In this document: piece by piece, positions 4,963-60,772 of the stretch | Numbering within the stretch: position 1 is the stretch's first letter | Layout: every line of letters starts with the position of its first letter | NCBI GenBank assembly: GCA_964188305.1 | Contig: OZ076896.1 | Length of the DNA stretch: 64,000 bases | Origin: Podarcis bocagei | Taxonomy: Eukaryota | Strand: one strand, 5' to 3' | Made by a program: the position numbers and the translations under genes | The notes under the pieces: model-generated | The model's input: only the letters and a program-made list of their open reading frames with translations | Told to the model about the DNA's origin: nothing | Database searches by the model: none

Positions 4963-5337
4963 GGTAAAGCTAGAGCACCCATGGACAGGGGCGTAGGAAG
5001 GGGGGGCAGGGCGGCGCGCCCTGGGTGTCATCCCTGAGGGGGTGACAAAAAGGCACACCATGGGGGGCTCACCCTGCCGCCCCCGTGCGTGGCAACGTGC
5101 AGCGGATCACCCCCCCTGCGCGCAGCTCACCCCCACCGGGTGCACGGCATGGCCGCTGCTCCGGGTGTTCATGCAGCTAACTCCACCGTTGCCCCTGGAC
5201 ACTTAAGTCCAGTCAAAGGTGACTATGGGGTGCGGCACCCATCTCCGCTTTCAGGCTGAGGGAGCCGGCGTTTGTCCACAGACAGCTTTCCGGGTCATGT
5301 GGCCAGCAGAACTAAACCACTTCTGGCACAATGGAAC
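4963..5337 (-). mobile_element. Sauria SINE, 3' portion (interrupted by the hAT MITE)
   Basis: ggtaaa...ttaagtccagtcaaagg..gactatgggg..catctc..gagggagccggcg..gggtcatgtggccagca is homologous to the other Sauria SINE copies in the window. Confidence 0.8.
4986..5191. mobile_element. GC-rich hAT-type MITE inserted in a Sauria SINE tail
   Basis: 8-bp TSD cccatgga (4978-4985) / cccctgga (5192-5199); degenerate TIRs caggggcgtag / ctccaccgttg; abrupt rise in GC content. Confidence 0.65.
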
Positions 5338-5536
5338 ATATCCAGTAATGGAACATCCTATGCACCTTCAAACCATTAGTTTGGTCCTGTGGTACTTTAA
5401 GACTTTATAGTACTATTTTCTGTGTACCCAAAACCAAAATATAAACTTTTGATTATCTGAATTCGAAGTTCTTGCAATACAGCCTCAAACTGAGAGAATG
5501 AAACACAAGAAAGCTATACCTGTGTGTTTTGAATTG

Positions 5537-7778: not shown

Positions 7779-9443
7779 TCTTATAAGAAAAAGCTCCTTT
7801 TTCCTTTATGGGGTATCCAAAAGCCCGTATAGAGTCCTTATGTAGGTTCTCTATCAGTAGGAGAAAATAACAAAGGCCAACCAGAGAATATTGAGAAGCA
7901 AGGCAGCTAGTAAGCATGATCTTTATTAAACAGTTGCAGCAGGGTCCCCCGCTTACTCCACGTATAGAGGGAGGAGAGGAACCCAGAACATTGGTGTGCA
8001 AGCTCTTATAAAGACTTTTGAAATTGCCTACCCTGTAGCTCGATGTTGTTGTTGTTGTTTAGTCGTGTCCGACTCTTCGTGACCCCATGGACCAGAGCAC
8101 GCCAGGCACTTCTGTCCTCCACTGCCTCCCGCAGTTTGATCAAACTCATGCTGGTAGCTTCAAGAACACCATCCAACCATCTCGTCCTCTGTCGTCCCCT
8201 TCTCCTTGTGCCCTCCATCTTTCCCAACATCAGGGTCTTTTCCAGGGAGTCTTCTCTTCTCATGAGGTGGCCAAAGTATTGGAGCCTCAACTTCACGATC
8301 TGTCCTTCCAGTGAGCGCTCAGGGCTGATTTCCTTCAGAATGGAGAGGTTTGATCTTCTTGCAGTCCATGGGACTCTCAAGAGTCTCCTCCAGCACCATA
8401 ATTCAAAAGCATCAATTCTTCGGCGATCAGCCTTCTTTATGGTCCAGCTCTCACTTCCATACATCACTACTGGGAAAACCATGGCTTTTACTATACGGAC
8501 CTTTGTTGGCAAGGTGATGTCTCTGCTTTTTAAGATGTTGTCTAGGTTTGCCATCGCCTTTCTCCCAAGGAGCAGGCGTCTTTTAATTTCGTGACTGCTG
8601 TCACCATCTGCACTGATCATGGAGCCCAAGAAAGTAAAATCTCTCACTGCCTCCATTTCTTCCCCTTCTATTTGCCAGGAGGTGATGGGCCCAGTGGCCA
8701 TGATCTTCGTTTTTTTGATGTTGAGCTTCAGACCATATTTTGCGCTCTCCTCTTTCACCCTCATTAAAAGGTTCTTTAATTCCTCTTCACTTTTTGCCAT
8801 CAAGGTTGTGTCATCTGCATATCTGAGGTTGTTGATATTTCTTCCGGCAATCTTAATTCCGGCTTGGGATTCATCCAGCCCAGCCTTTCGCATGATGAAT
8901 TCTGCATATAAGTTAAATAAGCAGGGAGACAATATACAGCCTTGCCGTACTCCTTTCAAGGCAGTGATCAAGGCAGTGATCCATGAAGGGGTAGCTTGAT
9001 ACCACCCCCCAAAACATACATACATCACAGAAAGAGGTGGTCCCTAGCAAAAATTTGAGTGTGTTGCTTCTCTCCTGTCTGCCAGGATACCTGATAATGC
9101 CTTATCTGATTGCCTTTTCTGGGTAGCCTGGCTGAGATGGTAAATATTTAGTTCCTGGATCTCTTATGCATATTGATAGTGTGCTCAGCTTAACAGATAC
9201 TTGCCAGACTGTATTTACAGGGAGGTGTAAGCCCCTACAGTCCAAGGACAATTGGAAAGCTTTTCCCATTTCCTTCCTCCTTGCAGAGAAATATTTGAGG
9301 TAAATTTGGGAGTGTCAGAATGGCTTCAGGATTGTTCTCCTGTGCTATTTCAGACACGTGGCTTATATACCTATGTATGTGTTTACCTTGTACATTTATG
9401 AACATTTTTTGTATATCTATAAGACCTTAGAATTCCTATAACA
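7779..9443 (-). mobile_element. ERV-like solo LTR (~710 bp net), interrupted by BovB
   Basis: Terminal inverted ends tcttataagaa / ttcctataaca; flanking direct repeat ACAATAA (7772-7778, 9444-9450). On the minus strand a TATAA (~8010) is followed by AATAAA (7927-7922). Confidence 0.65.
8045..8990 (-). mobile_element. BovB (RTE clade) LINE: 3' ~0.9 kb with uninterrupted reverse-transcriptase C-terminal ORF
   Basis: ORF 8006-9028(-) contains GVRQGCILSPCLFNLY, LRYADDTTL and IDAFELWCWRRLLRVPWTARRSN, typical of BovB. (CAA)n tail at 8045-8058; 10-bp TSD gtagctcgat (8035-8044) / gtagcttgat (8991-9000). Confidence 0.95.
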
Positions 9444-17039: not shown

Positions 17040-17378
17040 GGTGGCGGGTGGCACTGTGGTCTAAACCACTGAGCCTCTTGGACTTGCTGATCAGAAGGTC
17101 GGCGGTTCAAATCCCCGCAACAGGGTGAGCTCCCGTTGCTCTGTCCCAGCTCCTGCCAACCTAGCAGTTCAAAAGCATGGCAGTGAAAGGAGATAAATAG
17201 GTACTACTGTGGTGGGAAGGTAAACAGCATTTCCGTGTGCTCTGGTTTCCCTCATGGTGTTCCGTTGTGCCAAAAGCGGTTTGGTCATGCTGGCCACATG
17301 ACCCAGAAAGCTGTCTGTGGACAAACATCGGTTCCCTCAGCCTGAAAACGAGATGAGCACCTCAACCCCATAGTCGCT
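17040..17378 (+). mobile_element. Sauria SINE (tail missing)
   Basis: gcgggtggcactgtggtctaaaccactgagcc...tcagaaggtcggcggttcaaatcccc...acctagcagttc...gctggccacatgaccc. Confidence 0.9.
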
Positions 17379-17440
17379 CAGGATCCAGGAGCTCAACACA
17401 TTGAGCCCCAACAATAATCCACATAATCCAAACCTCAGTA

Positions 17441-17658
17441 CAGTGGTACCTCGGGTTACATACGCTTCAGGTTACAGACTCAGCTAACCCAGAAATATTA
17501 CCTCAGGTTAAGAACTTTGCTTCAGGATGAGAACAGAAATCGTGCAGCAGCGGCAGCAGGAGGCCCCATTAGCTAAAGTGGTGCTTCAGGTTAAGAACAG
17601 TTTCAGGTTAAGAACAGACCTCCGGAATGAATTAAGTACTTAACCCGAGGTACCACTG
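17441..17658. mobile_element. Tigger/pogo-like MITE family A
   Basis: Perfect TIRs cagtggtacctcgggtta / taacccgaggtaccactg with TA TSD. Confidence 0.92.
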
Positions 17659-17946
17659 TAGATCAAAAGACAGTAACAAATAGTGATGGGTTAGCCAACT
17701 ACCAGCAGGGGAAGAAGGAGTCTCCATCATGGGTTAAGAGAGTTTAGATGCTCTCTTGCATCAGTGGACTCTGCTGTCTCATGCCTTATATACACAGCCA
17801 ATCACTGCACTCTGCAGGGCTGGGCCTCCTTCAGATGCCATTTCCTCAGGAGGACCATTCTGCATGATGTTGGAATCAGGTCTTTAGTGTGGTTGCAACT
17901 ACCCTTCCGCTCTTCCTCCCACCACATAACAGATTGGCAGTATCTA

Positions 17947-18290
17947 CAGTGGTGCCTCACAAGACGAAATTAATCCGTTCAGTGAGTCTCTTCGTCTAGC
18001 GGTTTTTTCATCTTGCGAGGCAACCCTATTAGCGGCTTAGCGCTATTAGCGGCTTAGCGGCTATTAGCGGCTTAGCGGCTATTAAAGGCTTAGCAGATTA
18101 GCGGCTAAAAGGCTATTAGCGGCTTAGCAGCTTAGAAAAAGGGGGGAGCGGAAAAAAATCGGAACACTCACAAGACGTTTTCGTCTTGCAAAGCAAGCCC
18201 ATAGGGAAAATCGTCTTGCGAAGCAGCTCAAAAACTTTCGCAAGACGGGTTTTCAGTCTTGCGAGGCATTCGTCTTGCGGGGCACGACTG
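17947..18290. mobile_element. Tigger/pogo-like MITE family B with internal (TTAGCGGC)n-like repeats
   Basis: TIRs cagtggtgcctcacaagacgaa / ttcgtcttgcggggcacgactg, TA TSD, internal ttagcggc array at ~18029-18135. Confidence 0.9.
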
Positions 18291-19229
18291 TATGTTATCA
18301 TTCTGGTGCCTATTGAAGCCCTTCCCTTATTCAACAAATCTTTCAAGAGGATATTCTTTTAAAATCCCAGTCTGTGTCTGTACTGAACTTGAAATTGTTT
18401 TTAGCTATCTTTTTAACTTTGGAATGTTTTATGGGAAGTGATTCACAAATGAAATAAATAAGAATGATAGAAAATTATAATAGGCAGAAATTGAAGGGCT
18501 GCACCAAAGAAGCCTGAGGATGATGTTATTTCTGTTCCTGATACTCAACTTGAATGTGATTTTTATTGTAAGAACCTTTTATTAACTTAATTAGAGAGCC
18601 TTTCAGGGCTACAAAGCAGGATACCATTTTCCTAAATATATCAGTAATGTTGATTTTACTTTAAAAACTTAAGGGTTATTCTAGTACCATATGCATATTA
18701 CATGCATTATACCAGTGCAGTAAACATGGGACTGCTTATGAAGTTAGCCAGTGTAGTGCAGTGAGTAGTGCTGGATTTAGACTGAAGAGACCTTAAGCCA
18801 GTTTCTGTCTCTCAGCCTGCTTCACTGAGTTGCTGTGAGGATAGAAGGGTAGCAGGAAGAACCATGTAACATGCTGTTAAGGATTTCTAGCCTCATAGTT
18901 GCAACTCTTTCTCTAAATTATCTATGCCATCTCAAAGGGTGAATGTATTAGAGATTGATACATTCGATAAGAGATTGAGTGTTTGGGGGGGAGGCTTGTT
19001 AATTTCATTGTACACAGGTTGTACAATGACAATAAAGTTATTATCATCATTATTATTATTAGAACTCTTTGCTTGGCTTTTGTCTTCAGACATGTAGATG
19101 CATTAAACTATTAGCATCCTCAAATATTCTAGGGCCTAGACTTTCCTGTATAAAATTATTTTGCCCCTTAATGGCTTTTTAAAAATCAGCAAAATAGGGG
19201 TTCTGAAATAGGACTTATGCCCCGCAGGC

Positions 19230-34169: not shown

Positions 34170-34947
34170 ATGCAGAAAACCTTAAAACTAAGTCTTCTGA
34201 ACTATATACCTATTGTATGGAAGTTAACAATGAAGATTGATTCTACGTACTCCAATGGTAGCCAAAAGACTGATATTGATAACTGGAAGAATAAAGATAT
34301 AATCCCCTTTAATAAATGGATCACTAATATGATAACACTCACAACTTATGAATGGACTGCTTACAGACGTAGACTTGGCTTGGAAAAATATGACAATATT
34401 TGGAATGAGTTCATACAAAAGGTAAAGGTAAAGGGGCCCCTGACGATTAGATCCAGTCGCAGACGACTCTGGGGTTGCGGCGCTCAACTCACTCTACTGG
34501 CCAAGGGAGCCGGAATACAGCTTCTGAGTCATGTGGCCAGCATGACTAAGCTGCTACTGGCGAACCAGAGCAGTGCACGGAAACGCCGTTTACCTTCCCG
34601 CACTTTGACGTGCTTTCGAACTGCTAGGTGGGCAGGGGCTGAGACCGAACAATGGGAGCTCATCCCTTCACAGGGATTCGAACCGCCAACCTTCTGATCA
34701 GCAAGCCCTAGGCTCTGTGGTTTAACCCACAGCGCCACCCGCGTCCCATACGAAAGGTAGTAGGCTATTAATATTTACATATGTATTAGGATAATAATAT
34801 ATATGAGTTAGGATTTTTTGGTATATATTCATATATATTTTTCTACAAATTTTTGTGCCTTTTTGTTTTTCTTCTCTTCTTCTCTTTTTATCACTTTATT
34901 TATTTAAGTTGAAATCTTTTCAATAACATATTATTACCAAAAAAAAC
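34170..34947 (+). mobile_element. L1-like LINE 3' end (interrupted by a Sauria SINE)
   Basis: Residual ORF2 C-terminus W..KWITNMITLTTYE...KYDNIWNEFI, T-rich 3' UTR and A-tail at ~34939-34946. Confidence 0.55.
34425..34747 (-). mobile_element. Full-length Sauria SINE
   Basis: Head gggacgcgggtggcgctgtgggttaaacc on the minus strand, (ACCTTT)n tail, 12-bp TSD atacaaaaggta / atacgaaaggta. Confidence 0.93.
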
Positions 34948-37874: not shown

Positions 37875-40202
37875 CATATTCCCTCCAAATGGAAGCCTAT
37901 CTGGTGTTGTTTTTTCAACACACAAGTGAAGACTTGTTCACTTTCCAGCTTTTTACAGTTCTTTAGTTTTTAATATTGTAGACAACTCTAGACGTATGGC
38001 ATGTTTTGGTTCTTCAGCTGTTGCTATTCTTGTATTGTAATATCTCTCTGTTTTATGAGTATGACTGCTGTCCTGAGATGTTTGGTTTCTTTAGAAAAAA
38101 AACCTAAAGGGCTGCTTGTAAATATTTTTAATTAATTAATTAATAAAACATTTGGACATGTACAAAAATGCTGTTAACACTGGAGTTTAAAAACCAGATA
38201 CATGGGGGAAGGGTTGATATCAGAGGCTTCTTTGTTGCGGAAAGATGTCAGTTCAACTGCTCTTTACACTGTACAGATCTGTGTACCTAAGGCAGGTTTA
38301 TAGTGAAAAATCCATCCCTCTGGGGACTTAGAGCAACTTGTAAATCTATGCAAAAAAAATTCAGTAAGGCGCCATGTCCTTCATTTACTTTCTTTCATTT
38401 GTAGGATTCTTTCTAATACAGTCTATAAATGACTTTTTGCTAAATAGAAATATCCTTTTCATACTTTGCGTCATTATGATCTTGAAGTTTTCATACCCAA
38501 GGATTTCAGCTTAACTCCCTTGTTAGATTAGAAAAGGTCTCTAGGCATCTGTGTGAAATTCATGAATTCATGAAAATTGCACCAAAAGAAAACAGCACAC
38601 ATTTCTTCAGGCTGGTCTAACCTTGCCCTTTTGTTTTGATTTAGACATCAATATTCATTTGGGGGGGGGATAGATTTATAGCCCAATAGAATGGCCATAT
38701 AGAAATTGCAGTTGATTGACAGCATTTGGAACCTAATTTATCCTGGTAATATTTTCATACAAGGAGATGAAATAAAAATAATGTGCTGCATAAGCCCCCA
38801 ATACCACAAACCTCTATGTGGCAAGGCTACCTTATCAATATGTGACTCTTCTAAAAAGTCCCTTCACATAAATGATGTGTGCAAAAGTGTACTGAACCTT
38901 CTGTTTATATTATTCTAACTGCAATAATGTGCTTCACCTAGTTCTTTATTTCTTGATCGTCTGTCTTGTTTGTATGCTGTTTTTTTTTTTGAAAGGAATA
39001 GAGCTGAGTAACAAAAGTTGTATTAAAAAATTGAAACAGAAGGTGCCTACTCAATTGCTATTGGCAAAGCATTCCACAATATTGGGCTGATGACATGAAA
39101 GGCTTTGTTTCTTGTCGTTATCGACTTGTCAGCATGGGGAACAACCAACAACACAATATTATTGTGCATAATGGATAGCAAGATCACACAGCTTTATTTG
39201 TATCTGTATCTTGAATTTTGTTTGAACTGAACTTTCTAACATCTGAGTTCATCTGGCATCAGGGGTGGGAAAAGTGGGTATGGTTTGGCTAAAACAACTT
39301 GGTAGGCCAAACTCAGAGGCCTCCAGACTGCAAGTTCTCCATTACTAGAGCAAACAGTAGATTGCTTTAATCATAAATATACATGCAAAAGGTCAAGCTG
39401 GAAACTTTTCCTCACCATTGATAAAGCTTCACCCATTTAATTTCTGCATATCAAGCTGCTGTTAAAAGATAAGTAGGCAAAAATGGGAGATGAGTGATGG
39501 CTACACCTACCACGGGCTCCATCAGCTGACCCCAACTCTCTTCCTCAAAAGGCCCAACAGTCTCCAGCTACCACTGAGCAAATTTTACCTTACGAATGTA
39601 AAGGGTACACATGGCAAAATACAATGCTGAGCAACTTTTATGCCACACAGAAGGCAAAGGATATTCAGGCCAAAGCCTTGCAAGCGACATGTTCCAATTC
39701 AAACAAAATGTTTCAAGCACACACAAGTCTCATGTAAGCTAAAAAAGAAAAGAAAAAAAGACTTTAGGAATGTTTTTAAAGCATGCAGCTAAACCAATCA
39801 CAGAGACTTAAACCTTAGACCCATATAATTCTATTGCAGTAAAAAATGACTCGATTCCAAGTAAACATGTAAAGGAATGTTGAACAGCATGAAGGCTAGG
39901 AGAGATATGAACTCTCTAAAAATTAAACCACAAAGGCCAAACAAGCAAAGCAGTGATGTAGTGCTACTGCTGAGAACTCAGTCTGTTTCCCTCTTTAGGT
40001 TTTCTGCAGCTGTCCTGGATACAGATTTCTTTTGTTGCCAGTGGGAATTTCTTGTTGAACAATACGTTTTGACAAGCAGTGTTTAGGGACTCTGCTTTGG
40101 TTAATTTGTCTGCCCCCTCAAAAAAACCAGCAGCTTCATTTTACCAACCAACTAATCAACGTGATGAGAACCTGAACTATTTGAAAATGAACCTACCACT
40201 AA

Positions 40203-40635
40203 TGTAATGGTTCTAGGGGTTGCTTGTGTGTAAATCAACGCCACCCTTGGCTGGTTGCCTGAATGAACCCTTTCTGTCTGGACAGCCACGCGCCCGTGGC
40301 TGTCTCAATCGCTGGCAGAATCCGTTAGTGGGCGTTTCTTGAACTTCTTCCAGCAAAGAAGCTCTTTGACGCCTAGTCTCCGCCTAGCTTCCCTGCGCGG
40401 AAGCCTCCTGCGCAGGGAGGGTGTGGGCATCGGAGGACCCGTGCTCTCCCCACTGGTTCCCGGCGAGGAGTCTTGGAGCCACCTCGCCGATTCCCCCATC
40501 TGCCCCCCTTCTCCACTGGTGTTACGCTGATTTCCTTCCCCAGAAGATGTGCTGCTTCTCTCCCTCCCGGGACGCTCTCCGGAATCCCTCTGGAGCCCTC
40601 CCTCTCCCTCTGGCTCCGATGGCAGTTCCCTGACA
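40203..40635 (-). mobile_element. Solo LTR (Gypsy-like), 433 bp, containing a 109-codon open frame
   Basis: TGT...ACA ends, perfect 5-bp TSD ACTAA (40198-40202 / 40636-40640), homologous over its full length to 60290-60723. Confidence 0.88.
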
Positions 40636-41145
40636 ACTAACTATATATTCACTGATTTTTCTGTGACAAAAAAGGAGACATGGACATATTCCTAATCATT
40701 GCACATTGTTGTTAAATGGGGGGTGTTGTTCCTTAAGGTGTTACAGAAGAGATCAGATTCCCATTACCATCTTTTCCAGATAAACTGGATCAGGTAATAA
40801 TGCCAAAAATAATGTGACTGACAAAGAAATAACAGCCAATAACTACAAGCCAATATAATCTATTCTACAGCGCACTCCTATATGTATATTCAGAAGTAAT
40901 CCACCTGGAATTCAATAAGATTATTCCAAAGTAAACGTGCGCAGGATTGCATCCCAAACCATTATAATATAATTAGTTGCAATTCAATTCTAGCTGCATT
41001 GTTATACCTGACTAGTAATTCTGGATGTGGACACTTTATGACAGTGTGAAATGCATCCATTAAGTTCATTGGTAAACAAATTAGCATTGCCATGCATATC
41101 CACATCAGCTGCATAAGATTCTCTTCATTGGATTGGGATGATATA

Positions 41146-46500: not shown

Positions 46501-46591
46501 AACTTCTCTCTCTCTCTCTCTCTCTCTCTATAATACAGATTCTATACAGTTGATATTTTTCCCTTTGGTGTTTTTACTATTTAAAGGTGGT

Positions 46592-46750
46592 GAGCTTCTG
46601 TCGCTTTGTCCCAGCTTCTGCCAACCTAGCAGTTCGAAAGCATACTAGTGAAAGTTCATAAATAGGTACCGCTGTGATGGAAAGCTAAACAGCGTTTCCA
46701 TGCACTTTGACATTCGTCACAGTGTCCCATTGCACCAGAAGCTGTTTAGA
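46592..46750 (+). mobile_element. Sauria SINE internal fragment
   Basis: gtcccagcttctgccaacctagcagttcgaaagca...taaataggtaccgct. Confidence 0.8.
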
Positions 46751-47060
46751 AGTGGCTAGTGTTTTTATACTGGGAGTAGATCTCAGTTTCTTGGGAGTTG
46801 GATATGCCTGCTCTAGAGTAATCTCAGTAACGTCTCATTGATTACACAAAACCAATATGCAAAAGTGAACTAATCTAAGGCATGCAACTTTCAAAAGCCA
46901 CTGTTTCAAAAGCCACAAGTATCTTATTCAAACATGAGAAAAGTACTAAACTTAGGCTGCATACACATTATACCTTCAAAGCACATTCTTCCCCTCAAAG
47001 AATTCTGCACACTGTAGTTTACCCCTTGCAGAGTTATAATTCTCATTGACCCCCTAACTA

Positions 47061-47435
47061 GGTAAAGGTAAAGGGACCCCTGACCATTAGGTCCAGTCGT
47101 GACCGACTCTGGGGTTGCGGTGCTCATCTCGCTTTATTGGCCGAGGGAGCCGGCGTACAGCTTCCAGGTCATGTGGCCACATGACTAAGCCGCTTCTGGC
47201 GAACCAGAGCAGCGCACGGAAACGCCATTTACCTCCCCGCTGGAGCAGTACCTATTTATCTACTTGCACTTTGACTACTTGCACTTTTGATCTACTTGTG
47301 CTTTCGAACTGCTAGGTTGGCAGGAGCTGGGACTGAACAACGGGCGCTCACCCCGTGGCGGGGATTCGAACCGCCGATTTTCTGATTGGCAAGTCCTAGG
47401 CTCTGTGGTTTAACCCACAGCGCCACCCGCGTCCC
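47061..47435 (-). mobile_element. Full-length Sauria SINE inserted in an older MITE (~46952-47533)
   Basis: ggtaaaggtaaagggacccc tail to cagcgccacccgcgtccc head; 16-bp TSD (47045-47060 / 47436-47451, 14/16 identical). Confidence 0.93.
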
Positions 47436-50367
47436 ACTAACCCCCTAACTACTATGCCCCAAATTCTTTGCTGGGGGATGGGGGTGGGAATGTGATTTGA
47501 ATGGACTTTAAAAGGTATAGTGTGTATATTCCCAGAGTTTATTTTAAAACCAGATTTGCAGACCCTTTTTAAACAATGAATGTTGAATTAACACACTGAA
47601 TTCTGAACTAAGCTTGGCAGGCTGAGCAGGCTGGTTACTGCTATAGTCAGAAAATCCCAGCTTGAGACTTGCTTGTCCGACAGTGGGAATGAATGACTGA
47701 ATCCAAATACTCAGAACTAACTGGAATATGAGGTTTGACTTGAACGGAATGCCTATGAAGGCATGCAGCTGGAAAACATTGTTCCAGAGCTGGTTATTCA
47801 TGTGGATTTTTAAGGAAAGACTCATGGGGAGGATACAAGATTTGGGCTGGCTCCTGCTCAAGGATATTTAAAATATCTATGTGAAGAACAAATTCCAATG
47901 CAATGTTTGCCAACTTATATACCTTTCTTACCATTGGAATGATTCAAAAGCATTTGTGTAAGAAAGCACTACTTTACAGAGAACAGTCCTCTGAAGGGCT
48001 AAGTGGTCCAATTCCACTTAAAATATAAAAGAAAGAGCAAGGAGAAGCACTGAGGCTGCCCATCAACAATTAGCACTTGGACAGCAGACTGAATAGACAC
48101 ACAAGGCCCCATGTCACTGTCTTACCCACTATTAGTAAGACCACTGTATTTCCATTTAAATTATAGTAATTATTTCTAAATTTACAACTATATAAATTAG
48201 CATATGTCAATGTTAGGCAAATCTGTATCCTTTTTTTATTTGTATGTGTGTGTTGCATTTCCTCTTTCTCAGCAAAGGCAAAGTGGCCACCCTAGGAAGG
48301 GAACATTAAAAGTCTTCTTCTGTGCCTCTCTATTTCAAAGATAATGGTTTTCAGATTCTGGTCTATCAGCATCACCACACATTGATGCTTCTTTTTACCA
48401 CACTTTCCCAAGCACAGAAATTCTCTGTTGAATCCAGAATGACGGTAACAAGAAAATAATGTTAGCTGAGTTGGTTTCACTGGCAGCTGATCTGTTATAC
48501 TCCAAACTGTATCAACATAGTATTTACAAAAAAAAAAACCCCTGTCTGAGGAACAAATGAAACATTGGGGAAAAAATAATCCTGCAGACAGATCACAAAT
48601 CCTGCTGAGTGATCAACAAGAATGCACTCCACCCTTTGGAAACCAGCAGAATGTTGAACTCACGGAATTAGAACATTCCCTGCCATGCTACATTCTTTCC
48701 TTTAGTGCTCCCACAACTCATTTACTTCCATTACAGCAGGCAATATACACTAACTTTTGATCCCTGGGCAATATCCTTCCCAAAGTAATTTGGAAACATG
48801 AATGGACAATGTGAAGGCAATATATGAACCATGCAGTTGTAATCTTGGACAAAGGACTTGTTTTAGCTTCAGACCTGTTTTTAACTCATCAGAACTGAAA
48901 CATGGAAAATAGAAACAGTTTTTGCCAAACAAATATACATATGAAATCAATATTACTATTTAATAATAAACAGATATATTACAAAATTATTTTTCTTAAA
49001 GAGCTTCAAGATCCCATTCCTGCTTGCCTTTTTATTTTTGTTTTTGTTTTGCCTCCATTGCCATTATTGTAGAAACCATCAACTTTAGTGATAGAGGTAT
49101 AGTGGGAAACCATAGGAAGGCAGGATAAAGATGTAGATTTTAAGATACAGAGTAGGCACGGTGGCCATAGCTAAGAGCACATGTGCACAATATCCACATG
49201 TGCACAATATCCACACATACCAAGTGTTTTTCTTTGATGGTATCTGCACACACACAAAAGAAGTAAGTTTAAGGACCAGTGCAGCCATGTGGGTTGCAGT
49301 GCCAAAAAGCAGTAACTTCACCCACAGTTATCTGGGGATTGTGCAAATGTGTGCAACAGGGTAGACTTCCATGTGTGTAATTTATTGGTAAAGATGGACA
49401 CCACTGATATCAGTAAACTGGTCCTCAGAAATTCCACTTTACAATATTTCCACTCTGAAACACTGTACAACTGAAAGGTATTATAGAACACTGAGAAGGG
49501 GCAGGAGTAAGTCGTTACACTGTACTTCTCTTCCACTTGACTTTATCCTTGCTTTATCCTACATTAACAGTCCCCTTCCAAAAGACTTTACTCCCGTCTA
49601 TTATTAGCATAAAGAAAGTTTAGTAGATGATCGTTGTAAATTTGTGATCTAAAAGCACACTGCAGTGTTTAATTAAGACCACTATATTTTTTACTGAAAA
49701 TCTGATTGCATAACATATATTCTTTTTTCTTTTCATAACTTGTAAGAAAAATATTGAAGATGAATACATCAAATGTAAAAAAAAATATTTTCATTAGAGA
49801 ATTTAGGTTCAAGTGTCATGGGACTGCAATAGTCTGTTTCATTATTAAAACAATTATTCCAAAGTAACTAAACCTACTCTTAAAGCCTTCTCTATTTTGG
49901 AAGTATTGTATCTTCAGTACAAAAATGTAGGAATTGGTCCAACTCTGACATTTTTGGATTGATTTACTTCCACAGGATCCAGTTAAAAATTACACATGAC
50001 ATATTCCATATGTGATGGTTCCAAAAAATTAGCAAATCCTTCCAAATATGGGGGCTTGGGGAATGCCTGTTGTTTCCACCAGCAAATGGAAACAAAAACT
50101 GTTTCTGATACTTGCTGAACAACATTTGTCTGTCACTGAATAGTACATTAATATCACTAAATTTACATGAAGCAGTATTTAATATAAGCAACTTTAAAAG
50201 AACAATGGAACAATACTATTTACTGCCTAGTTAAACTGATGCTCTTGTATTTAAGCTGACTGGCAACAAAAGCACACTTACCAAGGAAAACAGCACCACA
50301 AAAATCAATGTTAATTAGAGGCAAAAAATATCCCTCATCAGGAACCATCAAGAAGCTGAATTGCAGT

Positions 50368-52625: not shown

Positions 52626-53473
52626 ACACAAATGTAGTCAAGTTATGTGAGAGTAGCTGAAGTCACCTATTACTACAACATTTCCTCTTTCAGATGCTTC
52701 ATTGATTTCATTCTGTATCTCAAGATCTTCCTGAGCATTTTGATCAGGGGAACAATAGCAAATCAAGAAAGAAAAAGTAGTAAGAATACTACTGTACTTT
52801 TATTTCTCTGCCACCAAAAGTGGCTGCCAAGAAGTAAATGAGTGACTGCTCCAGGCCCAACTCCAAATATCTTTTATAGCTTTACCTGAAAAGAAGCAAA
52901 CTAACAATTGTGCCAGAAGCTCTTGAGGACCACTTTAAAAATTACAGCTTTCCTTTATTTCTTGACACAAAAGGATCCACACTGCTGTCCTGCTAAATTT
53001 CAAATTAACAAAATAATAGTGTCATCTTTAGCTTGAAATTGCATGGTGAAATGTGTGCATCATTCAAAAGGGAAATTTAGAAAAGATTTGTATAAGTTGC
53101 CTTGGCACTGCAGACAGGAGCCTAGAGTTCAGTTGAGAACTAATGTAAAGGCTAAACATTGCAATATAGCTGGGTTTTTGCAGAGTATGAAAATTGGATA
53201 TGTGGGATTGGATTTTCATGTTACTATTTGTCAAGAGATGAAAAGTCTAATCCCAAAGAAGAGATTCATTAAAAGAAATAACTGAATGTGACTGTGCAAA
53301 TACACATTTAACTGTGTCATAAGTTCTGTTTTATAGCATACTTCTTAATTTGAGAAGACTAAAGGTTCATCTAGACTTCCTTTTGTGCTGTGTTTCTAGG
53401 CACAGGTCCGTGCTTTAAAGCGCCGAGTGCTTTCCCCCCCTCTTTTCTTTTTTTGCCCCAGCACTTTCCCTTA

Positions 53474-53775
53474 CAGTGGTACCTCGGGTTACATACACTT
53501 CAGTTTACATACGCTTCAGGTTACAGACTCCGCTAACCCAGAAATAGTGCTTCAGGTTAAGAACTTTGCTTCAGGATAAGGTTACATACGCTTCAGGTTA
53601 CAGACTCCGCTAACCCAGAAATAATGCTTCAGGTTAAGAACTTTGCTTCAGGATAAGAACAGAAATCGTGCTCCGGAGGCACGGCAGCAGCAGGAGGCCC
53701 CATTAGCTAAAGTGGTGCTTCAGGTTAAGTATGGACCTCCAGAACGAATTAAGTACTTAACCCGAGGTACCACTG
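53474..53775. mobile_element. Tigger/pogo-like MITE family A with an internal 77-bp tandem duplication
   Basis: Same TIRs and TA TSD as 17441-17658; 53504-53580 is repeated at 53581-53657. Confidence 0.92.
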
Positions 53776-54223
53776 TATTTAACACTGAATCAGAGCAAAT
53801 GGTGATCTGTGGAAAACCAATAAATTGTTATCTGAATAATCATAGGTCCTAGATTTGAATATGCTTTTATTTTAAAGAATCTTTTGTAACAGAGCAATCC
53901 TATCCCCCCTCTCAGGTTGTTGGTAACAGGGTATGTGTGTTACATAGGGTTTTTTCTGTCAGAGGAAAGGAACTCTTTGGTGTTCCTTACCTATGCCAAC
54001 CTGGAAATGGTGTAACAAAAACTGAAAGGAAAAACAACAACTACCCTACCACTCACTTTCCACCCAGAATGGCGTGAGCTGGAAGAGCCTTGGCTGCAAC
54101 AGTGTATCTACTGCCCTGTTCCTCTCAGGTTATGATTACTCTGCCTGTCACTTGGACAGCCTCACAGGGCTATAAAGCGCAACATTTAAGTATTCTAAAT
54201 AAAAAGCAGACTATTTTAGTGTA

Positions 54224-54585
54224 CAGTGGTGCCCTGCAAGACGAATGCCTCGCAAGACGAAAAACCCGCTAGACGAAAGGGTTTTCCGTTTTTCAATGCG
54301 CTTCGCAAGACGAATTTCCCTATGGGCTTGCTTTGCAAGACGAAAACGTCTTGCGAGTCTTGCAATTTTTTTCGCTTCCCCCCCTTTTTGCTAAGCCGCT
54401 AAGCCGCTAAGCCGCTAATAGCCTTTTAGCTGCTAAGCCGCTAAGCCTTTAATAGCCACTAAACCGCTAAACCGCTAATAGCGCTAATCCGCTAAGCCGC
54501 TAATAGGGTTGCTTCGCAAGACGAAAAAACCACTAGACGAAGAGACTCGCGGAACGGATTATTTTCGTCTTGCGAGGCACCACTG
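54224..54585. mobile_element. Tigger/pogo-like MITE family B (opposite orientation to 17947-18290)
   Basis: TIRs cagtggtgccctgcaagacgaa / ttcgtcttgcgaggcaccactg, TA TSD, internal (GCCGCTAA)n. Confidence 0.9.
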
Positions 54586-54678
54586 TATAAAGTGGAACTC
54601 TTCATAAGTCAGGTGCCCCATTGTGAAATTCCTGTGGCAAAAGCAAATGACATGGTGGGGTATTTGCACCACACCAAC

Positions 54679-59930: not shown

Positions 59931-60772
59931 GGGACACGGGTGGCGCTGTGGTCTAAACCACTGAGCCTCTTGGGCTTGCCAATCAGAAGGTCAGCAGTTC
60001 GAATCCCTGTGATGGGGTGAGCTCCCGTTGCTCTGTCCCAGTTCCTGCAAACCTAGCAGTTCGAAAGCATGCCAGTACAAGTAGATAAATAGGTATGGCT
60101 GCGGCGGGAAGGTAAACGGCGTTTCTGTGTGCTCTGGTTTCTGCCAGAAAACAACAACTATGCTTGGCGTTTCTGTTGTGCCAGAAGCTGTTTAGTCATG
60201 CTGGCCATAGGACCCGGAAAGCTGTCTGTGGCCAAACGCTGACTCCCTTGGCCTGAAAGTGAGATGAGCACCGCAACTCCATAGTCACCTGTAATGGGTT
60301 TAGGGGTTGCTCGTGCGTAAGTTGCCGCCACTCCTGGCTAGGTTACCTGGTTAACCCTTTCTGACTGAGCAGCCTCCAGCATCGTGACTGTCTCAGTCGC
60401 TGGCAGAATCCGTCAGTGGGCGTTTCTTAAACCTTTTCCAGCATAAAAGTTGTTTGACGCCAAGTCTCCTCCTACTCTCCCTGTGCGGAAGTCTTCTGCG
60501 CAGGGAGGGTGTGGGCAGCGGAGTACCCGTACTCTCTCTGCTGGTCTCCAACGAAGAGTCTTGGAGCCTCCTCCCCGATTCCCCCACCTGCCCCCCTTCT
60601 CCACTGGTGTTACGCTGATTTCCTTCCCCAGCAGATGGGCTGCCTCTCTCCCTACTGGGACCCTCTCCTGCATCCCTTTGGAGCCTTCCCTCCACCTCTA
60701 GCTCCGATGGCAATTCCCTGACATCACCTTTGATTGGACTTGGTCATCCAGGGGCCTTTACCCTTTTTACCC
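59931..60772 (+). mobile_element. Sauria SINE split by a solo LTR (59931-60289 and 60729-60772)
   Basis: Head gggacacgggtggcgctgtggtctaaacc; the tail ccaggggcctttaccctttttaccc resumes after the LTR. Confidence 0.9.
60290..60723 (-). mobile_element. Solo LTR (Gypsy-like), 434 bp, containing a 109-codon open frame
   Basis: TGT...ACA ends, perfect 5-bp TSD TCACC (60285-60289 / 60724-60728), homologous to 40203-40635. Confidence 0.9.

Follow-up and report, generated by a model that had tools for sequence, protein, structure and literature searches.

Coding sequence that overlaps the U3 part of a long terminal repeat (LTR) is familiar from retroviruses, in which HIV nef and MMTV sag are separate genes with their own start. 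Among LTR retrotransposons, the pol gene of plant CRM group A chromoviruses reaches into the 3' LTR and there codes for the CR motif, and pol of some Beta Bingo elements also ends in the LTR, according to the available extracts of the published accounts (PMC3059260, PMC3605345). The accessible portions of other reports describe a C-terminal bipartite NLS with a targeting domain in Ty1 integrase (PMC7459421), an arginine-rich nucleosome tether, the chromatin-binding sequence, in foamy virus Gag (PMC9040877, PMC5072296), and chromoviruses of the Amn-san type in fish, amphibians and reptiles (PMC4131045).

The window analysed here, a stretch of 64,000 nucleotides of Podarcis bocagei DNA (contig OZ076896.1 of assembly GCA_964188305.1), contains two solo LTRs. 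With a probability of roughly 75%, we read them as remnants of a Ty3/Gypsy chromovirus of lizards in which pol crosses the polypurine tract and continues for 109 codons within the 3' LTR, and in which the integrase would carry a linker and a basic tail serving import or chromatin docking. A sequence-only reading of this DNA had likened the LTR frame to nef and sag. Both the retroviral genes and the lizard frame overlap U3; however, the latter is the end of pol and not a separate gene, and the plant CRM layout is the closer analogue. The run of pol into the 3' LTR is common to the lizard element, CRM group A and Beta Bingo1-4 and Bingo7. In CRM elements, which inhabit plants and are primed by tRNA-Met, the CR motif replaces a classical chromodomain, whereas the lizard element keeps a chromodomain 5' of the polypurine tract, adds a tail, is predicted to prime itself and is not a member of CRM; Pfam returned no CR motif match in it. 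The basic modules of Ty1 integrase and foamy virus Gag are likewise short, end a poorly conserved region and serve import, site choice or nucleosome docking, as described in the available parts of the sources (PMC7459421, PMC9040877, PMC5072296); their likeness to the lizard tail is a functional analogy only, with no sequence similarity found, and those parts do not describe the module as LTR-encoded. From the vertebrate V-clade of Tf1/sushi elements (Sushi-ichi, Amn-san) the lizard element differs by its long pol run-on and by a predicted start and self-primer inside the coding frame.

Among 150 representative protein matches, compared as proteins only, 34 contain a Gly-rich-plus-Val word after the chromodomain and 12 end in a short SPxY/F tail. 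The latter (P0021, P0027, P0028, P0117 and 8 others) are chromovirus Pol proteins, two of them named as fish, and judging from their sequence such a tail may indicate that pol of fish elements extends a short way into the LTR. In the literature covered, to which the founding vertebrate Tf1/sushi papers and repeat databases that may already note the overlap did not belong, no account was found of the lizard tail, nor of any vertebrate element whose pol extends into its LTR. The entry of pol into the 3' LTR is already known from plants; added here are the pairing of an 11-mer with the primer-binding site, the peptide motif, and an unusual stacking of coding sequence with predicted promoter and primer signals.

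Two solo LTRs and their shared frame

The features of the two copies are as follows.

40203..40635, minus strand: solo LTR copy 1 (subfamily A1), 433 bp, TG...CA ends
40198..40202 (left) and 40636-40640 (right), no strand: target site duplication (TSD) ACTAA of copy 1, 5 bp
60290..60723, minus strand: solo LTR copy 2 (subfamily A2), 434 bp, TG...CA ends
60285-60289 and 60724-60728: TSD TCACC of copy 2, 5 bp
40305..40634, minus strand: copy 1 frame, 109 codons and stop, the LTR-encoded end of pol
60393..60722, minus strand: copy 2 frame, 109 codons and stop, counterpart of the copy 1 frame
40428..40634, minus strand: copy 1 codons 1-69, acidic Gly/Ser-rich linker, predicted disordered
40308..40427, minus strand: copy 1 codons 70-109, basic tail with LLCW motif, under purifying selection
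60396-60515, minus strand: copy 2 basic tail
40354..40361, minus strand: copy 1 T-rich Leu-Leu codons, ~30 nt 5' of the predicted start, not TATA-like, putative promoter role
40319..40329, minus strand: copy 1 11-mer (LTR nt 307-317), complementary to the primer-binding site, within the last 8 codons
60407..60417, minus strand: copy 2 self-primer 11-mer
40203..40304, minus strand: non-coding remainder of the copy 1 LTR, predicted rest of R plus U5 with putative boundaries

The two LTRs, singled out in the sequence-only reading for their different 5-bp TSDs and a gap-free minus-strand frame, both translate into 109 codons followed by TGA. The frame opens at base 2 of the LTR in each copy, as had been described, and its share of the LTR, first put at ~75%, measures 330 of 433 nt (76%). 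The statement that the copies have no ATG in common is likewise correct, the frame of copy 1 containing two internal ATGs and that of copy 2 none, and the earlier hand count over the last 40 codons proved exact (10 codons differing only synonymously and 4 replacements, namely R/H, A/S, E/Q and K/R). Since the first 69 codons differ by 5 synonymous and 17 replacement changes, the selection signal of the copy pair is restricted to the tail, in which 14 of the 40 residues of copy 1 are K or R.

No pol lies upstream of the copy 1 frame at its locus, so that the frame is presumably untranslated in place. Solo LTRs are the product of recombination between LTRs; those in the window are fossils rather than genes, and would bear only the imprint of selection on active parent elements. 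Both copies are 2-5% diverged from their nearest relatives among the genome matches listed, and the best genome matches of copy 1 are 97-98% identical.

Other repeats were seen in the window. The copy 2 LTR lies at the edge of one member (59937-60286) of a dispersed repeat of ~330 bp, which we take to be SINE-like and which recurs at 17045-17375, 34420-34748, 46589-47436 and 5227-5338. A 345-codon open frame at 8006-9043 on the minus strand matches reverse transcriptase (PF00078, E 5e-18) and is probably a LINE fragment, and two related clusters of short repeats with inverted copies (17439-18292 and 53472-54601) are transposon-like.

A chromovirus pol frame that ends in the 3' LTR

The element from which both LTRs derive is a Ty3/Gypsy chromovirus. 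Two LTR pairs ~5 kb apart enclose gag, protease, reverse transcriptase, RNase H, integrase, SH3 and chromodomain in Ty3/Gypsy order; the elements are bounded by a pair of TG...CA-ended LTRs and flanked by a short TSD, and gag followed by PR-RT-RH-IN was recognised by Pfam on the frames of L031 and L032 and in the listed domains of homologues. The nearest relative of solved structure in a PDB sequence search was Ty3 Gag-Pol (E 2.5e-138). The chromodomain PF00385 follows integrase in the homologues and gave a weak Pfam match on half the domain in L031, and a model of the region after SH3 (pLDDT ~90) matched HP1/CBX chromodomains in Foldseek, with only chromodomains among the listed top matches. 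Inspected by eye for the cage aromatics Y, W and Y, families A-D are without the third and mostly without the first, family H is without all three and family E has all three. Families A-D and H thus fall outside the group I chromodomains, defined by three aromatic cage residues (Y, W, Y) in the available part of the source (PMC3605345).

Intact elements show only gag and pol among frames of at least 250 codons, with none of env size. The gag and pol frames overlap in families A-D, F and H and are joined in a single frame of 1,558-1,564 codons in family E (L242, L243, L251, L252), whose basic tail differs from the A type and contains an RRSARL word. A quick tree of 77 rows, from which 80 more had been removed because of short cover and which includes no named Sushi/Amn reference, groups the long-tail elements, namely families A-F, family E included, P0008, P0015 and the Vipera protein (SH-aLRT 95).

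The order within pol is integrase, chromodomain, acidic linker, polypurine tract and then the 3' LTR. The earlier suggestion of an internal ORF crossing the polypurine tract into the LTR in the frame named was borne out by the open pol frames of the young sister family B and by the scored junctions of family A, the family of the window, and of the two sources then considered, Pol/integrase or an accessory gene, the frame is pol/integrase downstream of the chromodomain. Seven of the 8 elements fetched for family B contain a single uninterrupted pol frame of 1,328 codons that stops 304 nt inside the 3' LTR; by hand count, 61 of 150 listed genome matches to the family B tail lie within the pol-to-LTR frame, most others being 5' LTRs. 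Of the 30 family A loci with internal sequence plus LTR, 28 were scorable, and the chromodomain motif stood in the LTR frame in 17 of these and in another frame in 11; six loci were open from the chromodomain motif through the LTR stop, and a stop within 20 codons 5' of the LTR, the feature that the earlier reading had named as damaging, was found in 2 of the 28. None of eight family A elements fetched at length has a whole open pol, and the junction loci of this family are decaying copies. Families C, D and F behave at the junction as family B does, while in family E the frame extends 109-115 codons into the LTR in 4 of 6 elements and ends 5-7 nt inside it in the other 2. The polypurine tract is read as Gly/Glu codons, and past the chromodomain Pol continues for ~90-110 codons before the LTR and 100-219 codons inside it.

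A first look at the 1.6-Gb genome yielded 4,645 candidates for copy 1 and 5,253 for copy 2, figures that are not copy numbers. Among 165 distinct copies in six LTR subfamilies the frame was open to the stop in 36/46, 31/32, 3/4, 30/30, 24/24 and 26/29, counts biased toward open copies by collection through similarity to open-frame queries; a further 10 copies fell in none of the six. The remaining five frames contain ~1-7 stops on average, with the exception of one antisense frame in one subfamily (0.07), and the openness of the frame exceeds chance. Copies decay once inserted, as seen in the subfamily frame and dN/dS data. The closest named protein relatives are from Podarcis muralis. Family B (e.g., L093-L130) is a very recent burst: its 40 best LTR matches show ~100% identity and lie for the most part in pairs separated by 5,062 bp, and pol is open in many of its members.

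Contig C19 showed a strong pile-up of two-LTR elements and a repeated composite unit with nested families G and H, which would fit a W-like, low-recombination chromosome. At L081:1093-1500 a family B element is inserted in the polypurine-tract region of a family A element, and more nested elements occur in L131-L134, L249 and L253.

Selection on the LTR-encoded tail and its distribution

The proposal that the 109-codon frame is under purifying selection stood for the last ~40 codons (dN/dS 0.06-0.34) and failed for the family A linker, which is near neutral in amino acids. These values come from pairs of natural open-frame copies of six subfamilies, corrected for within-family diversity. Tail dN/dS was 0.06-0.34 in all 15 subfamily pairs, which share branches and are not independent, 0-0.37 after removal of the last 8 codons, and 0.17 (bootstrap 0.03-0.42) between the two window subfamilies. 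Within-family decay gave 0.53-0.68, a fair neutral baseline that lies below 1. Four of the other five frames gave at least 1.07 in five pairs tested, and the antisense frame sharing third positions gave 0.25-0.42, as expected. Linker values were 0.84, 1.54 and 1.21 in family A, with no amino-acid constraint, and 0.28 for the B-D linker.

A codon model fitted to 6 natural copies, which had no transition term and therefore returns low omega values throughout, gave 0.08 for integrase/SH3 and for the chromodomain, 0.3 and 0.4 for the linkers (0.4 for that in the LTR) and 0.16 for the tail, the last remaining at ~0.16 even without the last 8 codons. On 8 copies, omega=1 was rejected for the tail (2dlnL 76-90), third positions varied in 36 of 40 codons and second positions in 14, and 14 of 18 invariant residues were encoded by more than one codon, the arginines alternating between CGN and AGR. 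Replacements in the tail are dominated by K/R exchanges. These substitution patterns indicate that the tail is selected as a protein.

Structural modelling of the tail was weak, giving a 12-residue helix with pLDDT 53-65, and the linker is predicted to be a disordered acidic region. Invariant hydrophobic residues (V, L, C, W, F) are spaced C-terminally of the basic run. Searches of Pfam, PDB sequences and the ESM Atlas yielded no match to the tail, and a resemblance to arginine-anchor or CENP-C-like motifs found no support in the PDB sequence search. A predicted complex with the H2A-H2B of the same genome scored 0.01, against a mark of 0.34, which speaks neither for nor against docking.

The basic run followed by LLxW recurs in two distant members, family H and the protein P0008, both of which score above 1000 of 1000 composition-preserving shuffles with the tail profile. 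The LTR of family H measures 787 bp, as delimited by the 5' LTR and by a copy flanked by a separate TSD; it contains 219 codons, and the pol-LTR junction is as in family A, with basic run and LLxW present. Homology with the tails of family E, P0043 (Vipera) and P0022 (Rhineura) is unsupported, 434, 237 and 317 of 1000 shuffles scoring equally high; the Vipera and Rhineura proteins have acidic and then basic ends, and family E, whose frame stops before the TATA position, is without LLxW. UniRef already contains Podarcis Pol models that include the tail, without comment. A search among longer proteins (7,988 candidates scored) gave five matches, four from Podarcis and one other. The phospholipid-transporting ATPase model P0170 of Podarcis muralis ends in the LTR tail peptide, 89% identical to the copy 1 tail, which is either an annotation artefact or the exonisation of a solo LTR.

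Predicted signals within the codons and the proposed role of the tail

The self-primer of Tf1 is 11 nt long. In the lizard family an 11-mer two bases 3' of the 5' LTR can pair with LTR nt 307-317, a stretch contained in the last 8 codons of the frame, and the self-complementarity expected of Tf1/sushi elements is thus present as an 11-bp helix. At 37 true 5' LTR junctions the pairing is 11/11 in 34 and 10/11 in 3. Across five subfamilies all 55 cells of the helix are paired, 4 of 11 pairs are compensatory, and slid controls give 15-36%; the 11-mer of copy 2 differs from that of copy 1 by one base, compensated in the A2 primer-binding site. One further 5'-junction match was rejected as a chance match in a solo LTR. 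Complementarity between primer-binding site and LTR is given as the self-priming signature of Tf1/sushi elements in the extracts available (PMC4600332, PMC6317226), and the helix predicts self-priming of this type. The putative self-priming 11-mer, unnoticed in the earlier reading, accounts for part of the DNA conservation at the very end of the frame.

The predicted transcription start is the 11-mer, at LTR nt 307 in family A and nt 280 in family B, and reverse transcription would be self-primed as in Tf1/sushi elements; if the start is placed correctly, U3 is coding throughout and R contains the stop codon. The LTRs of A1, A2 and B showed neither a canonical TATA nor AATAAA. Families E and H show 10-bp matches ~30 nt 3' of TATA-like words. 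The Leu-Leu codons at this TATA position use only T/A-rich codons, A1 and B keeping LLCW with no TATA-like word there, and part of the conservation of these codons may reflect double duty.

With the frame assigned to pol, the integrase would bear, after its chromodomain, an acidic and disordered tether that ends in a basic tip with some helix; the tip would stay on the mature enzyme and either take the integration complex into the nucleus or anchor it to chromatin. We lean slightly towards a tail that, alongside the chromodomain, serves both nuclear localisation and tethering to chromatin. A bolder proposal, which we hold to be doubtful, is that a squamate lineage evolved a vertebrate counterpart of the CR motif, i.e., an LTR-encoded basic run with LLxW on a tether that replaces a cage-less chromodomain and shares bases with promoter core, start and self-primer, solo LTRs scattering it as a spliceable coding module. 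The tail-bearing families have lost one to three cage aromatics and family E is intact, which, judged by eye and in one lineage, is a lead only.

The conserved bases might serve chiefly as DNA or RNA signals, promoter core and self-primer, the translated peptide being a tolerated run-on with no job of its own. The location of the primer 11-mer in the last 8 codons, the T/A-rich Leu-Leu codons ~30 nt 5' of the predicted start, where families E and H are TATA-like, the absence of LLxW from family E together with a frame that stops short of the TATA position, and the free drift of the family A linker would all fit such a run-on. It is nevertheless decidedly improbable, as dN/dS stays at ~0.16 without the primer codons, third positions vary far more than second (36/40 versus 14) while arginines switch between CGN and AGR, replacements are mostly K/R exchanges, and A1 and B keep LLCW despite having no TATA-like word. 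A functional tail could also work elsewhere than in nuclear entry or targeting, namely inside the particle, where it would bind RNA or cDNA in packaging, chaperoning or the stabilisation of the intasome, or after release by the protease. Fourteen K/R in 40 residues fit nucleic-acid binding equally well, the long disordered linker could be a protease site and no motif match indicates a host partner; yet the invariant hydrophobics after the basic run, kept in distant families, would rather resemble a protein-docking motif, and the available portions of the reports describe the C-terminal integrase tails of Ty1 and CRM as serving import or targeting (PMC7459421; PMC3059260). We consider a role of this kind unlikely.

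That the frame is a separate U3 accessory gene of the nef or sag type, or a host gene domesticated at two loci, is hardly credible. The two internal ATGs of copy 1 and the Podarcis muralis ATPase model ending in the tail peptide would speak for it; but the copy 2 frame has no ATG, the frame is continuous with pol, and the window copies are ordinary, decaying members of families with thousands of first-look candidates. An ERV carrying a U3 accessory gene was ruled out by the lack of an env-sized frame among the frames of at least 250 codons, the lack of a shared ATG and the open pol-to-LTR frames.

Under the reading that we prefer, pol of a lizard chromovirus continuing into its 3' LTR, a seemingly non-coding repeat is a defined and selected integrase module, which parallels the CR motif of plant centromeric retrotransposons and whose possible role in nuclear entry or site choice is testable, the lineage holding very young, near-identical intact copies. 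The coding tail explains how lizard gene models can acquire the peptide. Three-quarters of a vertebrate LTR can consist of codons, in ~40 of which predicted promoter and primer signals are superimposed on the protein sequence, and hence such LTRs are not to be treated as neutral or purely regulatory in dating and annotation.
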